From positions 253,853 through 317,852 of the forward strand of contig CAVSFU010000009.1 of the NCBI GenBank assembly GCA_963727365.1: a DNA stretch of 64,000 bases. The letters are read 5' to 3'. Origin of the DNA: Paraconexibacteraceae bacterium (GTDB lineage Bacteria; Actinomycetota; Thermoleophilia; Solirubrobacterales; Solirubrobacteraceae). The position numbers and the translations under genes were made by a program. Of this stretch, positions 2,083 through 39,124 are shown piece by piece; position 1 is the stretch's first letter; the number at the start of each line of letters is the position of its first letter. Below the pieces are notes generated by a model. It was not told the origin of the DNA. It searched no databases and saw only the letters and a list, made by a program, of their open reading frames with translations.

Positions 2083-3981
2083 CTACGCCGGACGCCGCTT
2101 GGCCGCGGTCTCCGGGTCGGTCTGGAGGATCACGCGGGTCGGCCGCTCCGCGAGCACGGTCTCGATCGTCTTGCCGAACACCGACCCACCGCTCCCACGC
2201 GCGGGCAGCGGCATCACGATCGCCTGGGCGCGCATCTGCTGGGCGGCGTTGATGATCTGGCGCCCGGCGCCGCCGGCGCGGACCTTGATCCAGCGCCCGG
2301 TGACCCGCCGGCCGCCGACGAGCTTGGCCTGCTCGATCACGGCCTGCGCCGCGAGCTCCTGCTCGGGCAGGTCGGCGTTCAGCGGCGACGACGCGGGCAC
2401 CGTGATCGTGACGAGCACGTGGATGCCGCGGCGCCGGCGCGCCGCGACGCGCGCGGCTGTGGCGATCGCGCCCGGGGAGAACGACTTCGCCTCCAACGCG
2501 ACGAGCACCGACTCGTACTCGGCCTCGTGGTCGACGACCGGTTGCGGGATCGCGACCTTCGTCGTCGTCGTGAGGTCCAGCCCGTGGCGGCGGCGGTAGA
2601 CCGGGTAGACGATGCAGCCGAGCAGCAGCCAGCCGATGCCGGCAGCGGCGACGTCGAGGTGCAGCAGCGTGACGACCAGGAACGCAAGCCCCGTGCCAAG
2701 GCCGCCGAGCACGGCAAACAGCGGCAGCTTGCGCCCGGCGACCGTGATGATGCCCGGCCCGCGGAAGGGGCGTTCCTTGTCGGGCTGGGTCAAGCGCAGT
2801 CGCACCACGGCGGCGTGCGCGATCGTGAACGACAGCATCGCCCCGAACGCGTAGATATTGCCGAGGAAGTCGGCCTTGCCCGGGATCATCGCCAGGCACG
2901 CGACCGCACCGAACAGGAGGATCCCGACCCACGGCGTGCCGAACTTCGGGTGCAGCTGGCGCAGCCGGTCGGGCACCTGGCGGTGCAGGCCCATCGAGTA
3001 GACCAGGCGCGAGACGCCGATGATGCCGGCGTTCGTCGCGATGAAGAGGATCGTCGCGGCGAGCAGGCCAACGTAGATCTCCCCCGGCGCCTGCAGGAAA
3101 CCGAGGTCCATCTCCTTCACGACGCCGAGCACCGGGTCGCCCGCGAAGCCGCCCTCCTCCTCGGAGAGCCCGAGCTTGGTGACGTACTCGCCGTCGGCGT
3201 TCTGCGTCACCGGCAGCGCGCTGAGCGCGACCATCGGCAGCAGCGCGTAGATCGCAAAGACGGCGATCACGACGCGGTTGATCGCCGCGGGGATCGTCTT
3301 CGTCTCGTCCTTGGCCTCCTCGGCCATGTTCGAGATCGTCTCGATGCCGGTGTAGGCGATCATGCCGATCGGGATCGCCAGAAAGAAGTCCTTCCACGAC
3401 GGCGCGACACCGAAGTCGATGTTGTCGACGAGCGTCCCGGGGTCGAAGACGAGAAACAGCCCGACCATCACGAGCAGCAGCTGCGTCGCGAAGTCGATCA
3501 CCGCGAGCGCCACGTTCACGCCGGCCGACTCCTTCACGCCGATCACGTTCACGAGGCTCAGCAGGATCACGACGCCGATCCCGAAGAAGATGTCGCCGGG
3601 CGCATGGCGCAGGGCCTCGACGCCGATGATGCTGCCGAGGTAGTGGGGCACGAAGAACGCCGAGATGGCGATCGTGATGATGTAGTTGAGCATCTGGCCC
3701 CACGCGGCGACGAAGGACCAGAACTCGTTGAACGCGTGGCGCGCGAAGGAGCTCGAGCCGCCCGCCTCCGGGTACATCGCCGTGGCCTCGGCGTAGGTGG
3801 AGGCCGTCAAGTAGAAGATGAAGCCGGTGATCACGAAGACCACCGGCGTCAGCCCGAGGGCGAAGCTCGCGACGAGGCCGAGCGCGTAGTAGATCGATGA
3901 CCCGACGTTGCCGTACGCGGTGGCGGAGAGGGCATTCACCCCCAGCACGCGCTGGAGGCCGTGGAGTCGGCGCTCGGCCAA
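2083..3981 (-). CDS. APC-superfamily amino acid permease fused to a C-terminal USP domain.
   Basis: 632-aa ORF with N-terminus NALSATAYGNVGSSIYYALG and about 12 TM segments. The C-terminus reads YESVLVALEAKSF...GIHVLVTITVP...AIVMPLPARGSGGSVFGKTIETVLAERPTRVIL, which is USP-like. The start is TTG. Confidence 0.85.
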   Translation of the reverse strand: MAERRLHGLQRVLGVNALSATAYGNVGSSIYYALGLVASFALGLTPVVFVITGFIFYLTASTYAEATAMYPEAGGSSSFARHAFNEFWSFVAAWGQMLNYIITIAISAFFVPHYLGSIIGVEALRHAPGDIFFGIGVVILLSLVNVIGVKESAGVNVALAVIDFATQLLLVMVGLFLVFDPGTLVDNIDFGVAPSWKDFFLAIPIGMIAYTGIETISNMAEEAKDETKTIPAAINRVVIAVFAIYALLPMVALSALPVTQNADGEYVTKLGLSEEEGGFAGDPVLGVVKEMDLGFLQAPGEIYVGLLAATILFIATNAGIIGVSRLVYSMGLHRQVPDRLRQLHPKFGTPWVGILLFGAVACLAMIPGKADFLGNIYAFGAMLSFTIAHAAVVRLRLTQPDKERPFRGPGIITVAGRKLPLFAVLGGLGTGLAFLVVTLLHLDVAAAGIGWLLLGCIVYPVYRRRHGLDLTTTTKVAIPQPVVDHEAEYESVLVALEAKSFSPGAIATAARVAARRRRGIHVLVTITVPASSPLNADLPEQELAAQAVIEQAKLVGGRRVTGRWIKVRAGGAGRQIINAAQQMRAQAIVMPLPARGSGGSVFGKTIETVLAERPTRVILQTDPETAAKRRPA

Positions 3982-4007
3982 GGCGCCGCAGTCTAATGCG
4001 GCGCCTT
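3980..4007. terminator. Perfect 11-bp stem with a 6-nt loop, lying between the MFS 3' end and the permease 5' end.
   Basis: The sequence is aaggcgccgca-gtctaa-tgcggcgcctt. It has no clear U-tract and overlaps the TTG start of 2083..3981. Confidence 0.35.
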
Positions 4008-33368: not shown

Positions 33369-34559
33369 ATGGAGGAGATTCTCGGCGAGATCGACGACTT
33401 CATCGCGCGGGAGGTCGAGCCGCTCGAGCGCGAGCACCCGCAGTTCCTCGACCACCGCCGCGAGTTCGCGCGCACGGACGTCGAGCGCGACGGTGCCCCC
33501 ACCGCGGAGTGGGAGCAGCTGCTGCGCGAGGTGCGCCGGCGTGCTGACGCGGCGGGGCTGCTGCGCTTCGCGCTGCCCGCCGACCTGGGTGGGCGCGACG
33601 CGACGAACCTGCAGATGGCGATCGTGCGCGAGCACCTCAACCGCCGGCCGATCGGGTTGCACAACGACCCGCAGTCCGAGGCCTCGATCATCGGCAACTT
33701 CCCGACGGTGATCCTGCTGCACGAGTTCGGGACCGGCGCGCAGCGCGAGCTGATCGAGCCGTGCATCACGGGTGCGGCGGGCGTCGCGTTCGGGCTGACC
33801 GAGCCCAACCACGGCTCTGACGCCACGTACCTGGAGACGACCGCAGTGCGCGATGGCGACGAGTGGGTCATCAACGGGACCAAGCGCTTCAACACCGGGA
33901 TGCACGTGGCCAGCCACGACCTGGTGTTCGCGCGTACGTCGGGCGAGCCGGGTGAGCCGCGCGGGATCACGGCGTTCCTCGTCGAGCGCGAGGCGCTGGA
34001 GATCGAGATGTACTGGTGGACGCTGAACATGCCCTCAGATCACGCCGAGGTGCACCTCCGCGACGTCCGAGTCGGGGACGACGCGATCCTCGGCGAGGAG
34101 GGCCTCGGCCTCGCATTGGCGCAGCGCTTCGTCCACGAGAACCGGATCCGCCAGGCCGCCTCCTCGCTCGGGGCCGCCGTCTTCTGCGTGATCGAGGCCG
34201 CGCGCTACGCCAAGGGACGCGTCACGTGGGGCAAGCCGCTCTGGCGCAACCAGGCGATCCAGTTTCCGCTGGCCGAGCTCTGGACCGACTGCGAGCTGCT
34301 GCGCGGCCTGATCCACACGACGGCGTCCGAGCTCGACGCCGGTGAGATCACGCCGCACGTCGCGATGGTCAACTACCGCGCCAACCGCCTCGCCTGCGAG
34401 GCGGCCGATCGTGCGATCCAGGTCTGCGGCGGCATGGGTTACACGCGCCACATGCCCTTCGAGCACATCTACCGCCACCATCGCCGCTACCGCATCACCG
34501 AGGGCAGCGACGAGATCCAGCTGCGCAAGATCGCGCTGGATCTGTTCGGTGGGCTCTAG
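33369..34559 (+). CDS. Acyl-CoA dehydrogenase family protein.
   Basis: The sequences FGLTEPNHGSDAT, WVINGTKRFNTG, GGMGY and YRITEGSDEIQ are present. The ATG is placed at 33369 (MEEILGEIDDF). Confidence 0.88.
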   Translation: MEEILGEIDDFIAREVEPLEREHPQFLDHRREFARTDVERDGAPTAEWEQLLREVRRRADAAGLLRFALPADLGGRDATNLQMAIVREHLNRRPIGLHNDPQSEASIIGNFPTVILLHEFGTGAQRELIEPCITGAAGVAFGLTEPNHGSDATYLETTAVRDGDEWVINGTKRFNTGMHVASHDLVFARTSGEPGEPRGITAFLVEREALEIEMYWWTLNMPSDHAEVHLRDVRVGDDAILGEEGLGLALAQRFVHENRIRQAASSLGAAVFCVIEAARYAKGRVTWGKPLWRNQAIQFPLAELWTDCELLRGLIHTTASELDAGEITPHVAMVNYRANRLACEAADRAIQVCGGMGYTRHMPFEHIYRHHRRYRITEGSDEIQLRKIALDLFGGL

Positions 34560-37500
34560 CTGACGGCGGCCGCGGCCGCGGCCGCGGGCTCGGCGGGCGC
34601 CGGCTCAACCACAGGCGCCGGGAGCGGCGGAAGGATCCGCTCGAGCTCGGCCCGCAGGCTCGGCAGCTTGCGCAGATCGACGCGGTAGCCCTCGCCGAAG
34701 CGCAGCACGCGCTGGCCCATCGACGTCTCCAGCTCGAGCACGAACTCGCTCTCGCCGCGGTGGTTGCTGAGCGTGTGCTTCAGCTCGTCGATCGCGCTGG
34801 CCGGCAGCGCGCGGGCGTCAACCCGCCAGGTCAGCACGGGTGGGCCCGTCGGCAGCGCCGCGATCTCCTCGCGCGCCGCCTCGACCTCCGCGTCGCTGGG
34901 CGCAAAAGGGGTGATCTCTTGCGCTTTGAAGATCGTTCCCTTGTCGTCCTTTGCCAGCTGGCCGCGGATCGTGACGACGTCGTCGACCTTCGGCTCCATC
35001 TCTGCGAGGACGTTCTCGAAGACCATGATCTCGATCTGCCCCTCGAGGTCGTCGAGCGTCGCGAACATCAAGAGCTTGCCCGCGCGCGATTTCAGCTTGC
35101 GCGCGGTCGAGATGATGCCGCCGACGGTGAGCCACTCGCCGTCCTTGCGGTCGGGCAGCTCGGCGAGCGTCACGTCGCACGCGACGCGCAGCGCCGGCAG
35201 CACGGCCTTCAGCGGATGCGTCGACAGGAAGAGGCCGATCGCCTCCTTCTCGTGCGCGAGCAGCTCGCCCTGCTCGAATTCCTCCGACGGGATCGGCGGA
35301 TGCGACGGTGCAGCAAACGCCGCGGCCGCGCCGTTTCCACCGCTCATGTCGCCGAGGTCGAAGATCGAGCCTTGTCCGATCTCGGCGTCCAGCTGCGCCT
35401 TCTGCCCGGAGGCCTGCGCCTGCTCGAGCACCGCGAGCATCCCCATGCGCGTCGCGCCGGTGGAGTCGAACGCACCGCACTTCACGAGCGCCTCGATCGC
35501 CTTCTTGTTGACCGCGCGTGGGTCGACGCGCTCGCAGAAGTCCCAGATCGACTCGAACGGCTTCTCCTCGCGGGCGGACTTGATCGCCTCCACCGCCGCG
35601 TAGCCGACGCCCTTCACCGCGTCGAGCCCGAAGCGGATGCTGCCCTCGGCGACGACGAACTCGTGATCTGACGCGTTGACGTCGGGCGGCAGGATCGCGA
35701 TCCCGAGCTCCTCGCAACGCGCCACGAAGAACGGGACCTTGTCCTTGGTCGACATCACCGAGCTGATCAGCGCGGCCATGTACTCGGCCGGGTAGTTCGC
35801 CTTCAGCCAGGCCGTGCGGTAGGAGATCAGCGCGTAGCACGCAGCGTGGGAGTTGTGGCTGACGATGCCGTTCGCGACGTAGTTGAGCGGCCCGTCAGGG
35901 TCCATCTCGACGTCGTAGGTCATCCGCTCGCCAGCGAACTCGATCGCCACGATCGGGTCGCCGTTCTCTACGTGAGCGGTGGCGAGATGACGCTCGACCT
36001 TGAAGCGGAAGTCTTCGGGCGTCACGACGACATACGGCAACTCGCCGTACTTGTCGGCGAAGAAGGCAGGAGACCGGTCCATGCCGTCCATCTCCCAATA
36101 GACCCCATCGAGGTAGAAGTCGCAGACGCGGCCGCCGGGAAGCACCTTGTGCATCTCGAAGTCCACGCCGAGATCGATGAGCCACTCGCACATCTCGCGC
36201 TCCGGCCAGCTGGCGCACCACATTCCGTTCGATGCGATCGAGCAGTGGCCGTAGCCGGGGCCGGTGCCGTACGCGGTGGCAACTGTCGCCAGCGAGCGCT
36301 CCATCTGCGCGGTCCGCCACGCGGGGTCGTTGGCCCAGAGCCAGCGCACGCGCTCGTGCATCGCAGCGGCTCCGATCCGCCTGATATGTGGATGCAGCTC
36401 GTGCATCCGCTTCATGTGCGCGACCTTGTCCTCCTGCGGGCGCGAGGCCTGGTACTCGCGCATCCGGACCGCCGCGCGTCGGTCCTGCTCCTTGCGCTCG
36501 GGCCGGCGAGCGAGCTTGCGCATCGTTTCGCGGCGCGCCGCGCGCTGACGGTCGCTGACCATCGGCAACGTGATCAGCTCGGTCCCGACGCGCATCGCGC
36601 CGACCTCGAGATACCCCTCCGTCGTGAGCAAGCGGTGCTCCGCGGTGACCTTGATCTGTCGCCCGCTCTCACAACGCACGTGATACACGGGCTTGCGACC
36701 CGTCTTGACGATGCGGGTTACGCCGTGGGACCGAACCTCACCATCGGCCCACATCGACATGAGGCGTTTCGGCTGGAGGCGAAACGCCTCGCTCAGCCGG
36801 ACGCGCGTGCCGTCCTCGAGGACGACACGAGTGTCGCCGGTGGCGCACTTGTTGAACGAGTAGTCAGCCGATTTCTCGTTGGTCGTCCACAGCCAGTCGA
36901 TCACGTGCGGCGCGAGGCCCGACGCGCCACAGCCCGAGCGGAACTCGGGCTCGAGCTCGGCCATCGCGGCGCGGTTCTTCTTGCCGATTGCCTTGCGCAG
37001 GTCGTCTGCCTTGGCGCCCGAGAAGCCGGCGAGCTCCTTGGAGATCTGCATCGCCTGCTCCTGATACAGGATCACCCCGTAGGTGCCGCCGATGATCGGC
37101 GCCAGGCGGTCGTCGGGGATCGAGACGAGCTCTCGGTTGCGCTTGCCGCGTGCGTAGGTCGGGATCTGGTCCATCGCCCCTGGCCGGTACAGCGCGACGA
37201 GCGCGACGAGGTCGTCGAACTCCGTCGGGCGAACCTGCTTGAGGGCGTTCTGCATGCCCTCGGACTCGAACTGGAAGACGCCGACCGAGTCGCCCCTGGC
37301 GAGCATCTCGTAGGTCTTGGCGTCGTCCATCGGCAGCGTGTCCATGTTCGGGCGCTGGCCCGAGGAGCGGGCGATGATGTTGAGCGCGTCCTCGATCACG
37401 TCGAGGTTGCGCAGCCCGAGGAAGTCCATCTTCAGCAGGCCGAGATCCTCGACCGGCTTCATCGAGAATTGCGTGACCTGCTTGTAGACCTTGTTGCCGT

Positions 37501-39124
37501 TTTCGTCGGTGGAGTTGGCGTCGGCGAGCTGCAGCGGCACGACGTCGGTGAGCGGCATGCCCGCGATCACGACCGCGGCGGCGTGGATCGAGTTGTTGCG
37601 GACGATGCCCTCGAGGCCGCGCGCGACGTCGACGATCTGCTTGGCGGTCGGGTCGGAGTCGTAGGCGCCGCGCAACGGCTGGCCCTCGGCGAGGCAGTCC
37701 ACGAACGACGGCGCGCGGCCCTGCTCGGGATCCGGGATCAGCTTCGCGAGGCGATCGCCCACCCCGTAGTCGTGGCCAAGGACGCGCGCCGCGTCGCGCG
37801 TTGCCGCGCGCGGGAACATCTTGCCGAAGGTGATGATCTGGGCGACCGACTCGCGCCCGTACTTCTCGACGACGTACTGCATCACGCGCTCGCGGCCACG
37901 CACCGAGAAGTCGATGTCGATGTCCGGCATCGACACGCGCTCGGGGTTGAGGAAGCGCTCGAAGAGCAGGTCGTACTTCAGCGGGTCGACGTCGGTGATC
38001 AGCAGCGAGTAGGCGACGATGCTGCCGGCCGCCGAGCCACGGCCCGGGCCGACGGCGATGCCGTTGTCCTTGGCCCACTTGACGAAGTCCCAGACGATCA
38101 GGAAGTAGGCGTTGAAGCCCATCCGGTCGATGACCTCGAGCTCCATCTCCGCACGCTCGACCGCGTGGGCAGGCGGCGGGCTGCCGTAGCGCTTGGCCAG
38201 ACCGGTGAAGACCCGCTCGCGCAGGTACGCGCGCTCGTCCTGCCCCTCGGGCAGGAACCGCGGGATCAGCTGCTTGCCGAGCTCGATCTCCACGTCGCAG
38301 CGCTCGGCGATCTCCAGCGTGCTCTGCAGCGCCTCAGGCCACTCCGCGAACGCCTGCGCCATCTCCTCGGAGCTCTTGAGGAAGAACTCGTTGGTGTCGA
38401 AGGTCATCTTCGGCGCGGCGAGCGTGGACTTCGTCTGCACGCACAGCAGCGCCGTGTGGTGGTGGTAGTCCTCCTTGCGGAGGTAGTGCACGTCGCCGGT
38501 GCCGACGAGCTTGCCGCCGAGCTCACGCGCGATCTTCACGATCCCGGTGTTGGCGATCTCCTGGTCGCCGATGCCGTTCTTCTGGACCTCGAAGTAGACG
38601 TTGTCGCGGCCGAACGCGTTGATGAGCTCTGAGACGTGGGCGCGGGCGTCGTCCTCGCGGCCGTCGACGATGCGGCTGGCGAAGCGGCTGGCAAGGCAGC
38701 CGGTGAGCGCGATGATGCCGCTGGAGCGCTCGGCGAGCTGGGCCATGTCCAGCGCGGGCTTGCCACGGTGCAGCCCCTCGAGGAAGCCGTCGGAGGACAG
38801 CTTGACGAGGTTGCGGTAGCCCTCGTTGGTGGCCGCCAGCAGCGTGAGGTGGTTGCGCTCGATCTTGCGGCCGGACCCCGGCGCGGGATGGTCGGCGTGA
38901 TCGTCGACGTAGTAGATCTCGCAGCCGATGATCGGCTTGATGCCGGCCTTCTTGCACGCCTTGTAGTGCTCGACGGCGCCGTTCATGACGCCGTGGTCGG
39001 TGAGGCCGAGCGCCGGCTGGCCGAACTCGGCGGCGCGCGCCGCGAGCGCTTCGATCTTGCACGCACCGTCGAGCAGCGAGTACTCGGAGTGGACGTGCAG
39101 ATGGGCGCAGGACGGGGTGGTCAC
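34556..39124 (-). CDS. dnaE: DNA polymerase III alpha subunit, intein-containing precursor (1522 aa; 1190 aa after splicing).
   Basis: It has the PHP motif HLHVHSEYSLLDG and the sequences PDIDIDF, GLLKMDFLGLRNL and VFQFES. The conserved FNKSHAA motif is split as DYSFNK|C...HN|SHAACYAL. Confidence 0.95.
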   Translation of the reverse strand: MTTPSCAHLHVHSEYSLLDGACKIEALAARAAEFGQPALGLTDHGVMNGAVEHYKACKKAGIKPIIGCEIYYVDDHADHPAPGSGRKIERNHLTLLAATNEGYRNLVKLSSDGFLEGLHRGKPALDMAQLAERSSGIIALTGCLASRFASRIVDGREDDARAHVSELINAFGRDNVYFEVQKNGIGDQEIANTGIVKIARELGGKLVGTGDVHYLRKEDYHHHTALLCVQTKSTLAAPKMTFDTNEFFLKSSEEMAQAFAEWPEALQSTLEIAERCDVEIELGKQLIPRFLPEGQDERAYLRERVFTGLAKRYGSPPPAHAVERAEMELEVIDRMGFNAYFLIVWDFVKWAKDNGIAVGPGRGSAAGSIVAYSLLITDVDPLKYDLLFERFLNPERVSMPDIDIDFSVRGRERVMQYVVEKYGRESVAQIITFGKMFPRAATRDAARVLGHDYGVGDRLAKLIPDPEQGRAPSFVDCLAEGQPLRGAYDSDPTAKQIVDVARGLEGIVRNNSIHAAAVVIAGMPLTDVVPLQLADANSTDENGNKVYKQVTQFSMKPVEDLGLLKMDFLGLRNLDVIEDALNIIARSSGQRPNMDTLPMDDAKTYEMLARGDSVGVFQFESEGMQNALKQVRPTEFDDLVALVALYRPGAMDQIPTYARGKRNRELVSIPDDRLAPIIGGTYGVILYQEQAMQISKELAGFSGAKADDLRKAIGKKNRAAMAELEPEFRSGCGASGLAPHVIDWLWTTNEKSADYSFNKCATGDTRVVLEDGTRVRLSEAFRLQPKRLMSMWADGEVRSHGVTRIVKTGRKPVYHVRCESGRQIKVTAEHRLLTTEGYLEVGAMRVGTELITLPMVSDRQRAARRETMRKLARRPERKEQDRRAAVRMREYQASRPQEDKVAHMKRMHELHPHIRRIGAAAMHERVRWLWANDPAWRTAQMERSLATVATAYGTGPGYGHCSIASNGMWCASWPEREMCEWLIDLGVDFEMHKVLPGGRVCDFYLDGVYWEMDGMDRSPAFFADKYGELPYVVVTPEDFRFKVERHLATAHVENGDPIVAIEFAGERMTYDVEMDPDGPLNYVANGIVSHNSHAACYALISYRTAWLKANYPAEYMAALISSVMSTKDKVPFFVARCEELGIAILPPDVNASDHEFVVAEGSIRFGLDAVKGVGYAAVEAIKSAREEKPFESIWDFCERVDPRAVNKKAIEALVKCGAFDSTGATRMGMLAVLEQAQASGQKAQLDAEIGQGSIFDLGDMSGGNGAAAAFAAPSHPPIPSEEFEQGELLAHEKEAIGLFLSTHPLKAVLPALRVACDVTLAELPDRKDGEWLTVGGIISTARKLKSRAGKLLMFATLDDLEGQIEIMVFENVLAEMEPKVDDVVTIRGQLAKDDKGTIFKAQEITPFAPSDAEVEAAREEIAALPTGPPVLTWRVDARALPASAIDELKHTLSNHRGESEFVLELETSMGQRVLRFGEGYRVDLRKLPSLRAELERILPPLPAPVVEPAPAEPAAAAAAAVS
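35852..36847 (-). mobile_element. Intein (332 aa, DnaE residues 760-1091) with a non-LAGLIDADG, PD-(D/E)XK-like insert domain.
   Basis: Block A is CATGDTRVVLEDG, block B is VTAEHRLLT, and blocks F/G are MTYDVEMDPDGPLNYVANGIVSHN followed by +1 Ser. The central region reads SWPEREMCEWLIDLGVDFEMHKVLPGGRVCDFYLDGVYWEMDG. The length is an exact multiple of 3. Confidence 0.9.

Follow-up and report, generated by a model that had tools for sequence, protein, structure and literature searches.

We analysed a 64,000-nucleotide stretch of DNA from a Paraconexibacteraceae bacterium (GenBank assembly GCA_963727365.1, contig CAVSFU010000009.1, positions 253,853 to 317,852), referred to here as the window. 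Its minus strand carries dnaE, the gene for the alpha subunit of DNA polymerase III (Pol III), and the open reading frame (ORF) contains a contiguous intein. Nested between the splicing blocks of this intein is a domain for which a structural model supports the restriction-endonuclease, or PD-(D/E)XK, fold, and we propose that the whole element is probably a mobile homing intein. Its parts are as follows.

34556 to 39124, minus strand: dnaE precursor ORF (Pol III alpha subunit plus intein), 1522 amino acids (aa); ORF list, translation, NCBIfam and Pfam
36848 to 39124, minus strand: N-extein, DnaE residues 1-759, with the C-terminal end ...ADYSFNK; translation, Pfam finger domain at 573-733
35852 to 36847, minus strand: intein, 332 aa, 38.1 kDa, from Cys1 to His331-Asn332; translation, PF14890, TIGR01445, TIGR01443, conservation in 79 copies
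36563 to 36847, minus strand: N-terminal HINT lobe, aa 1-95, with Cys1 of block A (36845-36847) and T68 (36644-36646) and H71 (36635-36637) of block B; phmmer
36272 to 36562, minus strand: basic helical module, aa 96-192, isoelectric point 11.6, five predicted helices; AlphaFold secondary structure, low confidence
35960 to 36271, minus strand: nested nuclease core, aa 193-296; AlphaFold, Foldseek, hhalign, conservation
36200-36202, 36119-36121, 36092-36094 and 36086-36088, minus strand: putative catalytic residues E216, D243, E252 and D254, respectively; alignment, conservation
35852 to 35959, minus strand: C-terminal HINT lobe, aa 297-332, with D312 of block F (35912-35914) and H331-N332 of block G (35852-35857); TIGR01443 at residues 310-332, conservation
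34556 to 35851, minus strand: C-extein, DnaE residues 1092-1522 plus stop codon, starting at Ser+1 (35849-35851) with SHAACYAL...; translation, HHH_6, OB fold

The intein of dnaE and its insertion site

The NCBIfam equivalog model PRK05673 matched the ORF with 1241.8 bits (cutoff 1002) in two stretches, with the break at residue 760. The Pfam domains PHP, DNA_pol3_alpha and finger (residues 573-733) were found N-terminal to the insert, and HHH_6, which begins at residue 1141, and an OB fold were found C-terminal to it. The insert is exactly 332 codons long, from CATGDTRVVLEDG to VANGIVSHN, and splits the fingers motif so that the translation of the minus strand reads DYSFNK before it and SHAACYAL after it; when translated on the plus strand, 35852-36847 gives no meaningful protein. 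An earlier reading of the DNA from its letters only (the sequence-only reading) had described an oversized DnaE with this motif split between FNK and SH, together with Cys1, block B, a terminal HN and a +1 Ser, and all of these features are present. The Pfam model Intein_splicing (PF14890) covers intein residues 8-332 (E 1.9e-11, 44.4 bits; cutoff 35.8), and the models of the N-terminal (TIGR01445, 38.8; cutoff 24.5) and C-terminal (TIGR01443, 20.7; cutoff 15.6) intein regions also scored above their cutoffs. In a phmmer search, residues 4-97 matched solved structures of DnaB, RecA and DnaE mini-inteins. Cys1, T68-x-x-H71, D312, H331-N332 and Ser+1 are invariant across 79 homologous inteins. 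The insert is a contiguous class-1 intein located between FNK and SH and, given that dnaE is essential and that the ORF is intact in 79 genomes, we infer that it splices autocatalytically.

That the segment is instead a lineage-specific insertion of DnaE, or a misread intein of the LAGLIDADG or HNH type, has practically no probability. Both were ruled out, since the intein models score above their cutoffs, the set of splicing residues is complete and the insertion is precise with respect to the uninterrupted FN(K/R)SH alleles described below; a LAGLIDADG or HNH identity is further ruled out by the lack of any match at E<=10 and by the restriction-endonuclease fold.

The sequence-only reading had placed the insertion point four residues downstream of the site of the cyanobacterial split DnaE intein. 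KFAEY and CFNKS are the linkers commonly known from the Ssp and Npu DnaE inteins, and they are given as the native linkers of the split intein in the literature (bioRxiv 10.1101/196105). In the window, the intein follows ADY-SFNK and precedes SH, which is indeed four residues downstream of the junction between KFAEY and CFNKS. Both inteins thus occupy the same host protein and the same hot spot (the cyanobacterial one at Pol III alpha site 'a'), and both are class-1 inteins with Cys1. In contrast, the cyanobacterial intein is split, lacks an endonuclease, sits between AEY and CFNK with Cys+1 and is restricted to cyanobacteria, whereas that of the window is contiguous, carries a nuclease, sits between FNK and SH with Ser+1 and occurs, outside the cyanobacteria, in five phyla. 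An intein hot spot in the fingers of Pol III alpha was known before, and its sites a-d and g lie inside 75 residues (PMC4760082).

The helical module that separates the N-terminal HINT lobe from the nuclease core is presumed to be a DNA-binding accessory region. Profile scans with aa 96-192 gave no family match, and in some family members (P0040, P0043, P0049) the module is missing and replaced by linkers of 21-32 aa. NUMOD motifs were not detected in it by profile scan or by a hidden Markov model (HMM) of the WADPNSxYNSxE repeat of free-standing relatives, which gave no significant match, and the idea of NUMOD3-like repeats was dropped. The weak match of the module with mIHF, a mycobacterial protein that binds DNA (E 0.9), is a lead only. 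One Solirubrobacterales metagenome-assembled genome (MAG; L065, intein at about 1399-2298) encodes a 300-aa variant that has lost about 32 residues of the module, and its nuclease core and splicing blocks are intact despite the deletion. As for the remainder of the window, its overall GC content is 70.8%, and scans for tRNA and Rfam families found no tRNA, tmRNA or Rfam family in positions 1-64000.

The nested nuclease core

The LAGLIDADG and HNH models of Pfam, NCBIfam and PHROG did not match the central domain even at E<=10, in agreement with the sequence-only reading, which had seen neither signature. Searches of the domain against Pfam, PHROGs, NCBIfam and the PDB sequences, using the single sequence and a close-family profile, found nothing, and no Pfam, NCBIfam or PHROG model exists for this nuclease family. 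The profile check of the segment that the reading itself had named gave matches to the intein models and none to those of LAGLIDADG, HNH, Vsr or DUF559.

[quoted passage not shown] A second run used the core only and a diverse alignment of 43 sequences of the wider family (termed A4), and the resulting model had a pLDDT of 86.9 and a predicted template modeling (TM) score of 0.77. The elements located in it are a helix (22-34), strands at 52-54 and 57-61, a helix (68-75), a strand (80-83) and a last helix (88-103), and the chain as a whole runs through a helix, three strands, a helix, a strand and a helix. According to this model, the alpha-beta-beta-beta-alpha-beta topology is that of the restriction-endonuclease core, with E216 on helix 1, D243 on strand 2 and E252 on strand 3, as expected. 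The position of the Lys in the (D/E)xK motif of the superfamily is occupied here by Asp254, giving an ExD variant. The first-ranked PDB match found by Foldseek was 3R3P (probability 1.0, E 1e-3, TM 0.57/0.60, 96/98 residues), followed by 3HRL (the DUF559 protein NGO0050, probability 0.94) and, more weakly, by DrdV, AvaII, BglII, Hjc and a CdiA toxin nuclease. Against viral models, the matches comprised phage endonucleases, DUF559 proteins, endonuclease I, Holliday-junction resolvases, annotated homing endonucleases and A7KV39, an unnamed viral protein of 266 aa that, judged from its length and accession, is presumably I-Bth0305I itself. The model and its matches support the proposal, already made in the sequence-only reading, that the nested domain has a PD-(D/E)XK or restriction-endonuclease fold and is neither LAGLIDADG nor HNH.

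The core is the most conserved part of the intein, with a mean pairwise identity of 76% and the signature GPGYGxCSxASNGMWCASxPERxMCEWLIxxGxxFEMHKxLxxGRxCDFYFxGxYWEMDGMDRxxxxFxxKYGxLPYVVVTPEDF. The acidic tetrad E216/D243/E252/D254 is invariant in 79/79 genome copies, R258 and K266 are also conserved, and the signature of the nuclease family can be written as E...D...E-x-D-G-x-x-R...K. Among 77 representatives of the wider family, the tetrad is intact in 65, ten carry a substitution in it (e.g., D243 to N, S or A, and D254 to T, A or S), and the last two are N-terminally truncated; such substitutions are expected if some copies are decaying. Four cysteines of the core (C202, C211, C220 and C242, with codons within 36122-36244 on the minus strand) are invariant (two) or present in at least 90% of the copies (two) in the 79-genome subfamily, but the wider nuclease family does not conserve them. 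Their role may be in a zinc or structural metal site, or in a disulfide pair; Vsr binds zinc.

The strongest profile link of the core was with T7 endonuclease I (PF05367; structures 1M0D and 2PFJ), a Holliday-junction resolvase. By hhalign, A4 aligned with it at a probability of 93% (E 3e-7), limited to the first columns, about 64, and an HMM of A4 recovered 2PFJ among the PDB sequences at E 0.014. In both comparisons, S213/E216, D243, E252 and D254 align with S17/E20, D55, E65 and K67 of T7 endonuclease I, of which E20/D55/E65/K67 are the established catalytic tetrad; the 2PFJ sequence has Ala at position 67. The two proteins share an N-terminal GYG...S-x-x-E, the Asp and E-x-(K/D), but Lys67 is an Asp in the intein. 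T7 endonuclease I itself is structure-specific instead of sequence-specific and forms a domain-swapped dimer. The Pfam model PF05367 (Phage_endo_I) matched 1/43 family members, at an E of 0.036 that is below threshold.

As for Vsr and DUF559, to which the sequence-only reading had likened the domain, the likeness holds for the fold (3HRL, and many DUF559 phage proteins in the viral search) and for the pattern S-x-x-E ... D-F ... E-x-D-G. It does not extend to family membership, as PF03852 (Vsr) and PF04480 (DUF559) matched none of the 43 members at E<=1 and hhalign of A4 with E. coli Vsr gave 2.8%. The DUF559 signature is E-x-D-G-x-x-H, and the intein has Arg258 in place of its His.

We then considered that the domain could be a divergent Vsr-like EDxHD homing endonuclease of the I-Bth0305I family, in which case its in-frame position would be the sole novelty. 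The best structural match is 3R3P, with a TM score of about 0.6 over the whole catalytic domain, and hhalign of A4 with I-Bth0305I gave an E of 2.7e-4 over 44 columns, where TPER...VDFYLG...IEVNG of I-Bth0305I is visibly like WPER...CDFYLDG...WEMDG of the intein. Both proteins have the (S/T)PER motif on helix 1, the strand-2 Asp (D196, aligned with D243) and the strand-3 Glu (E206, aligned with E252); in both, the catalytic domain is C-terminal to a DNA-binding region, which in the intein is presumed, and I-Bth0305I acts in homing. However, the hhalign probability was 42% only, and the HMM of A4 did not recover 3R3P among the PDB sequences even at E<=10; the profile link with T7 endonuclease I is stronger and the Vsr model matched 0/43 members. 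Furthermore, His213 and Asp222 are defining residues of the EDxHD motif (PMC3239194), and in the intein family the Asp and Glu of the motif are conserved while the residue in the place of His213 varies and Asp222 has no conserved counterpart; N208 of I-Bth0305I aligns with D254. With this evidence, membership in the EDxHD family seems quite unlikely. Because it is devoid of the EDxHD His and Asp, the domain represents a separate, uncatalogued branch, and we conclude that it belongs to the PD-(D/E)XK superfamily, near endonuclease I, the Vsr-like homing enzymes and DUF559, but outside each of these families as now defined.

The change from ExK to ExD also raises the question of whether the domain is a catalytically dead nuclease fold kept for DNA binding or structure, which would make the element in effect a large mini-intein. 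The alignment of Lys67 of T7 endonuclease I with Asp254, the absence of the EDxHD His and Asp, and the fact that no nuclease family model recognises the domain agree with this idea. Nevertheless, DUF559-type proteins have E-x-D-G at the same position, and the tetrad, besides being invariant in the 79 copies, is near-invariant in free-standing and intein-nested relatives with 25-30% identity. Neither a ratio of nonsynonymous to synonymous substitutions (dN/dS) of 0.08 nor the spread across phyla would be expected of a dead domain, and we therefore regard this explanation as very unlikely.

Distribution, transfer and selection

Scanning the GTDB species, each represented by one genome, revealed 101 stretches that encode a relative of the intein, from which 80 loci were kept. 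The complete intein could be read in 78 of them, the other two being cut at a contig end, and these 78 plus the window make up the 79 copies mentioned above. All 78 are inserted at the same site, with FN(K/R/G) before the Cys and SH after the HN; their length is 329-336 aa, save for the 300-aa deletion variant, and none contains a stop codon. The hosts span five or more phyla (Actinomycetota, Chloroflexota, Armatimonadota, Rhodothermales and Vulcanimicrobiota) and include Solirubrobacterales, Thermoleophilaceae, Gaiellales, Ktedonobacterales, Chloroflexia, Thermomicrobiales, Abditibacteriaceae, Armatimonas, Rhodothermales/Rubricoccaceae and one Vulcanimicrobiota bin. In four Armatimonadota loci (L067, L077, L078 and L079) the N-terminal junction is YAFNG followed by the Cys, with Gly at position -1, and splicing would yield FNGSH, in which the otherwise near-universal Lys or Arg of the motif is missing; FNR is found in the Thermoleophilaceae alleles and in many intein-free relatives.

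When 1.84 billion representative proteins were searched exhaustively with HMMER, the nuclease domain gave 105 matches. About 60 of them are Pol III alpha proteins with the intein-nested domain, mostly at the same site; in two more (P0085 and P0086) the domain lies in an intein at another site of the finger domain, and in two superfamily 2 helicases (P0108 and P0110) it is also inside an intein. One protein of 1523 aa (P0071) contains two inteins, one with this nuclease domain and the other with HNH. Approximately 15 matches are free-standing proteins of 177-301 aa, with the domain C-terminal to helix-turn-helix (HTH), zinc-finger or weak NUMOD3 regions, and this combination with HTH or zinc-finger regions is typical of homing endonuclease families. 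The rest, multi-stretch matches to repeat proteins, were set aside. The sequence-only reading had called inteins with this nuclease fold rare; this is correct for the literature, but not for nature, considering the 101 stretches and the approximately 60 clusters at 50% identity that carry the domain.

Several other observations arose from these searches. Some metagenomic Pol III alpha proteins with this nuclease are very long (P0085, 1696 aa; P0044, 2635 aa; P0041, 2193 aa; and P0071); the C-terminal end of P0085 is a uracil-DNA glycosylase domain, and some of the long proteins match the N-extein in separate pieces, a sign that they may hold further insertions. The genes of two free-standing relatives, P0091 and P0078 (L084:1101-2881 and L085:1-1265), lie directly downstream of an ERCC4/XPF-type nuclease gene and overlap its stop codon, on short, phage-like contigs; the end of this gene may be a recurrent insertion site of the free-standing form. 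Two family-profile scans of the IMG/VR viral contigs found no relatives, and hence gave no sign of a phage vector for transfer between phyla. The metagenome gene calls P0001-P0028, from ENA, are mostly fragments of dnaE split by frameshifts on long contigs, probably from indel errors in long-read assemblies, and a word-indexed protein search for the intein gave only such frameshift-fragmented calls; the C-terminus CLLYTSPSPRD of P0004 is a translated Nextera adapter at a contig end.

To compare the histories of the intein and its host gene, we examined 2278 pairs of loci, contrasting the intein with 300+300 flanking extein residues of the same contig. When the exteins were 30-50% identical, i.e., in hosts from different phyla, the mean identity of the inteins was 63% and the maximum 80%; across phyla, the inteins are about 63% identical and the 600 flanking residues 39-42%. 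For L070 and L071 the values are 80% (intein) and 44% (extein), for L053 and L064 they are 73% and 38%, and for the window and Rhodothermales, 65-67% and 37-39%. In contrast, when the exteins were more than 90% identical, as in close relatives, the intein was 88% identical and the extein 92%. In vertical descent, therefore, the intein changes more quickly than the gene that hosts it, and yet it is far more alike across phyla; this comparison of sequences shows that it has spread horizontally between distant phyla.

The search with a spliced junction query of 260 residues, in which 118 of the best 120 matches had a contiguous FN(K/R)SH, proves the existence of intein-free alleles, though not their frequency. 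By identity with the window (79-84%), they are interleaved with the spliced exteins of intein-bearing loci. The insertion is precise and in frame within a conserved host motif, and the comparison of these sequences shows a presence/absence polymorphism of the intein. The intein-free junction DNA reads GCTGACTACTCGTTCAACAAG followed by TCCCACGCCGCCTGCTACGCG; across phyla, the DNA around the insertion (GCTGACTACTCGTTCAACAAG followed by TCCCACGCCGCC...) is well conserved because it encodes the FNKSH motif.

The median dN/dS was lowest in the nuclease (0.077), compared with 0.175 in the helical module and with 0.18 and 0.135 in the two HINT lobes; as dS was about 1.1, near saturation, the absolute values are rough and the ranking alone is firm. 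From these codon comparisons, the nuclease is shown to be under purifying selection. The GC content at third codon positions (GC3) of the intein mostly follows that of the host (0.88 for the intein of the window and 0.93-0.96 for its host). The only clearly un-ameliorated copy examined is that of an Armatimonas sp. MAG (L077, intein at about 3001-3999), whose intein has a GC3 of 0.47 and a GC of 0.485 while the flanking dnaE has a GC3 of 0.75-0.78 (0.76 for the host gene) and a GC of 0.59, which suggests a recent acquisition from a donor of lower GC.

These data also bear on whether the intein has been domesticated, that is, fixed and retained for a regulatory effect on Pol III alpha (for instance, under stress) of conditional splicing or of DNA binding by the nuclease-like domain, with no more homing. 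Stronger purifying selection on the nuclease than on the splicing lobes, a composition ameliorated to the host in most lineages and the strikingly uniform length of 329-336 aa would fit with domestication, and Novikova et al. favour the selective retention of replisome inteins (PMC4760082). On the other hand, an intein identity across phyla far above that of the exteins, intein-free alleles among the closest relatives and the compositionally foreign L077 copy speak against it, as do the free-standing relatives with the modular build of homing endonucleases and the tetrad substitutions in some family members, which are expected of a homing cycle. Taken together, we consider domestication unlikely.

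A proposed homing cycle and its significance

The reading that we consider probable is that of a mobile, contiguous class-1 homing intein in the essential gene dnaE, with an in-frame homing endonuclease of the restriction fold (PD-(D/E)XK-like) at the canonical position within HINT. It combines the anatomy of the intein, the fold of the nuclease and its conserved acidic tetrad with the horizontal spread, the purifying selection and the presence/absence polymorphism. We infer the activity in splicing and in cutting DNA, along with the target site, the positions of the cuts, the roles of R258 and K266, the oligomeric state and whether one or two subunits act per break. Site-specific cleavage and gene conversion, in particular, would be consistent with the spread across phyla, the sporadic distribution and the purifying selection.

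In the proposed cycle, the 1522-aa precursor would be translated and would undergo an N-S acyl shift at Cys1, after which Ser+1 would attack the thioester. Cyclisation of Asn332 and joining of the exteins would then restore the universal fingers motif YSFNKSHAA in a Pol III alpha subunit of about 1190 aa. The freed 38-kDa intein would bind an uninterrupted dnaE through its basic helical module, and probably also through the HINT surface, at a target around TTCAACAAG on one side of the insertion point and TCSCACGC on the other. A metal-dependent site composed of E216 (helix 1), D243 (strand 2) and E252-x-D254 (strand 3) would cut this target, and R258 and K266 may stand in for the Lys of classical ExK enzymes as the source of positive charge. 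An intein-bearing copy would serve as the template for repairing the break, and the intein would be inserted in this way. Because the target encodes a near-invariant polymerase motif, homing into very distant bacteria would be possible.

Various points weigh against this interpretation. The case made here for splicing and cleavage is one of sequence and of a structural model. With Asp in place of the catalytic Lys of ExK, and no His general base as in Vsr or EDxHD enzymes, the catalytic chemistry is putative. A composition ameliorated in most hosts implies that most transfers are not recent and that long vertical persistence is also involved, and the strong conservation of the nuclease in a fixed intein could instead reflect a role beneficial to the host. 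The near-saturated dS and the spliced query, with the bounds given above, also limit the argument, and the taxon labels come from metagenome bins, although the contigs used to measure the divergence of the exteins were those that carry the inteins.

Vsr-like homing endonucleases have been described as free-standing ORFs between the halves of split inteins and in group I introns (Dassa et al., PMC2677866), and I-Bth0305I was characterised by Taylor et al. (PMC3239194). I-Bth0305I and its kin are free-standing and not translated in frame within a contiguous intein, whereas the nuclease of the window is in frame. A survey from 2025 found in-frame intein endonucleases to be LAGLIDADG or HNH; Vsr-like enzymes, earlier known with split inteins alone, were extended with antisense cases (bioRxiv 10.1101/2025.01.02.630785). 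The canonical bifunctional inteins (PI-SceI and PI-MtuI with LAGLIDADG, and those with HNH) show the same nesting between the HINT lobes and the same presumed homing cycle, but their nuclease fold and active site differ from those of the window intein. Our searches for PD-(D/E)XK, DUF559 or restriction-fold nucleases inside inteins did not find this architecture described and, within the literature searched, a contiguous intein with an in-frame endonuclease of the restriction fold appears not to have been described. Whether this is the first recognised class of contiguous inteins with such an endonuclease, from a so far uncatalogued family ('E-D-ExD') that has T7 endonuclease I, I-Bth0305I and DUF559 as relatives, and homing across phyla at FNKSH, is a question on which we see the case for and the case against as evenly balanced.

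The biology of inteins and homing nucleases is itself established; what is noteworthy, and directly testable, is the architecture and the spread between phyla. If the proposal is true, in-frame intein endonucleases would be of three types, LAGLIDADG, HNH and restriction-fold, and the family would offer a new small nuclease scaffold for engineering, compact and monomer-sized, whose natural target is long and lies in an essential gene. Since many database dnaE calls of these organisms are fragmented or over-long, annotation and phylogenomics are affected as well. The data also provide an unusually clean natural case of transfer between phyla inside an essential replication gene that is otherwise inherited vertically. 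The known routes of intein mobility would be widened by a third in-frame type that is common among soil bacteria from several phyla, and such a type would lend support to the repeated fusion of free-standing homing genes into inteins.

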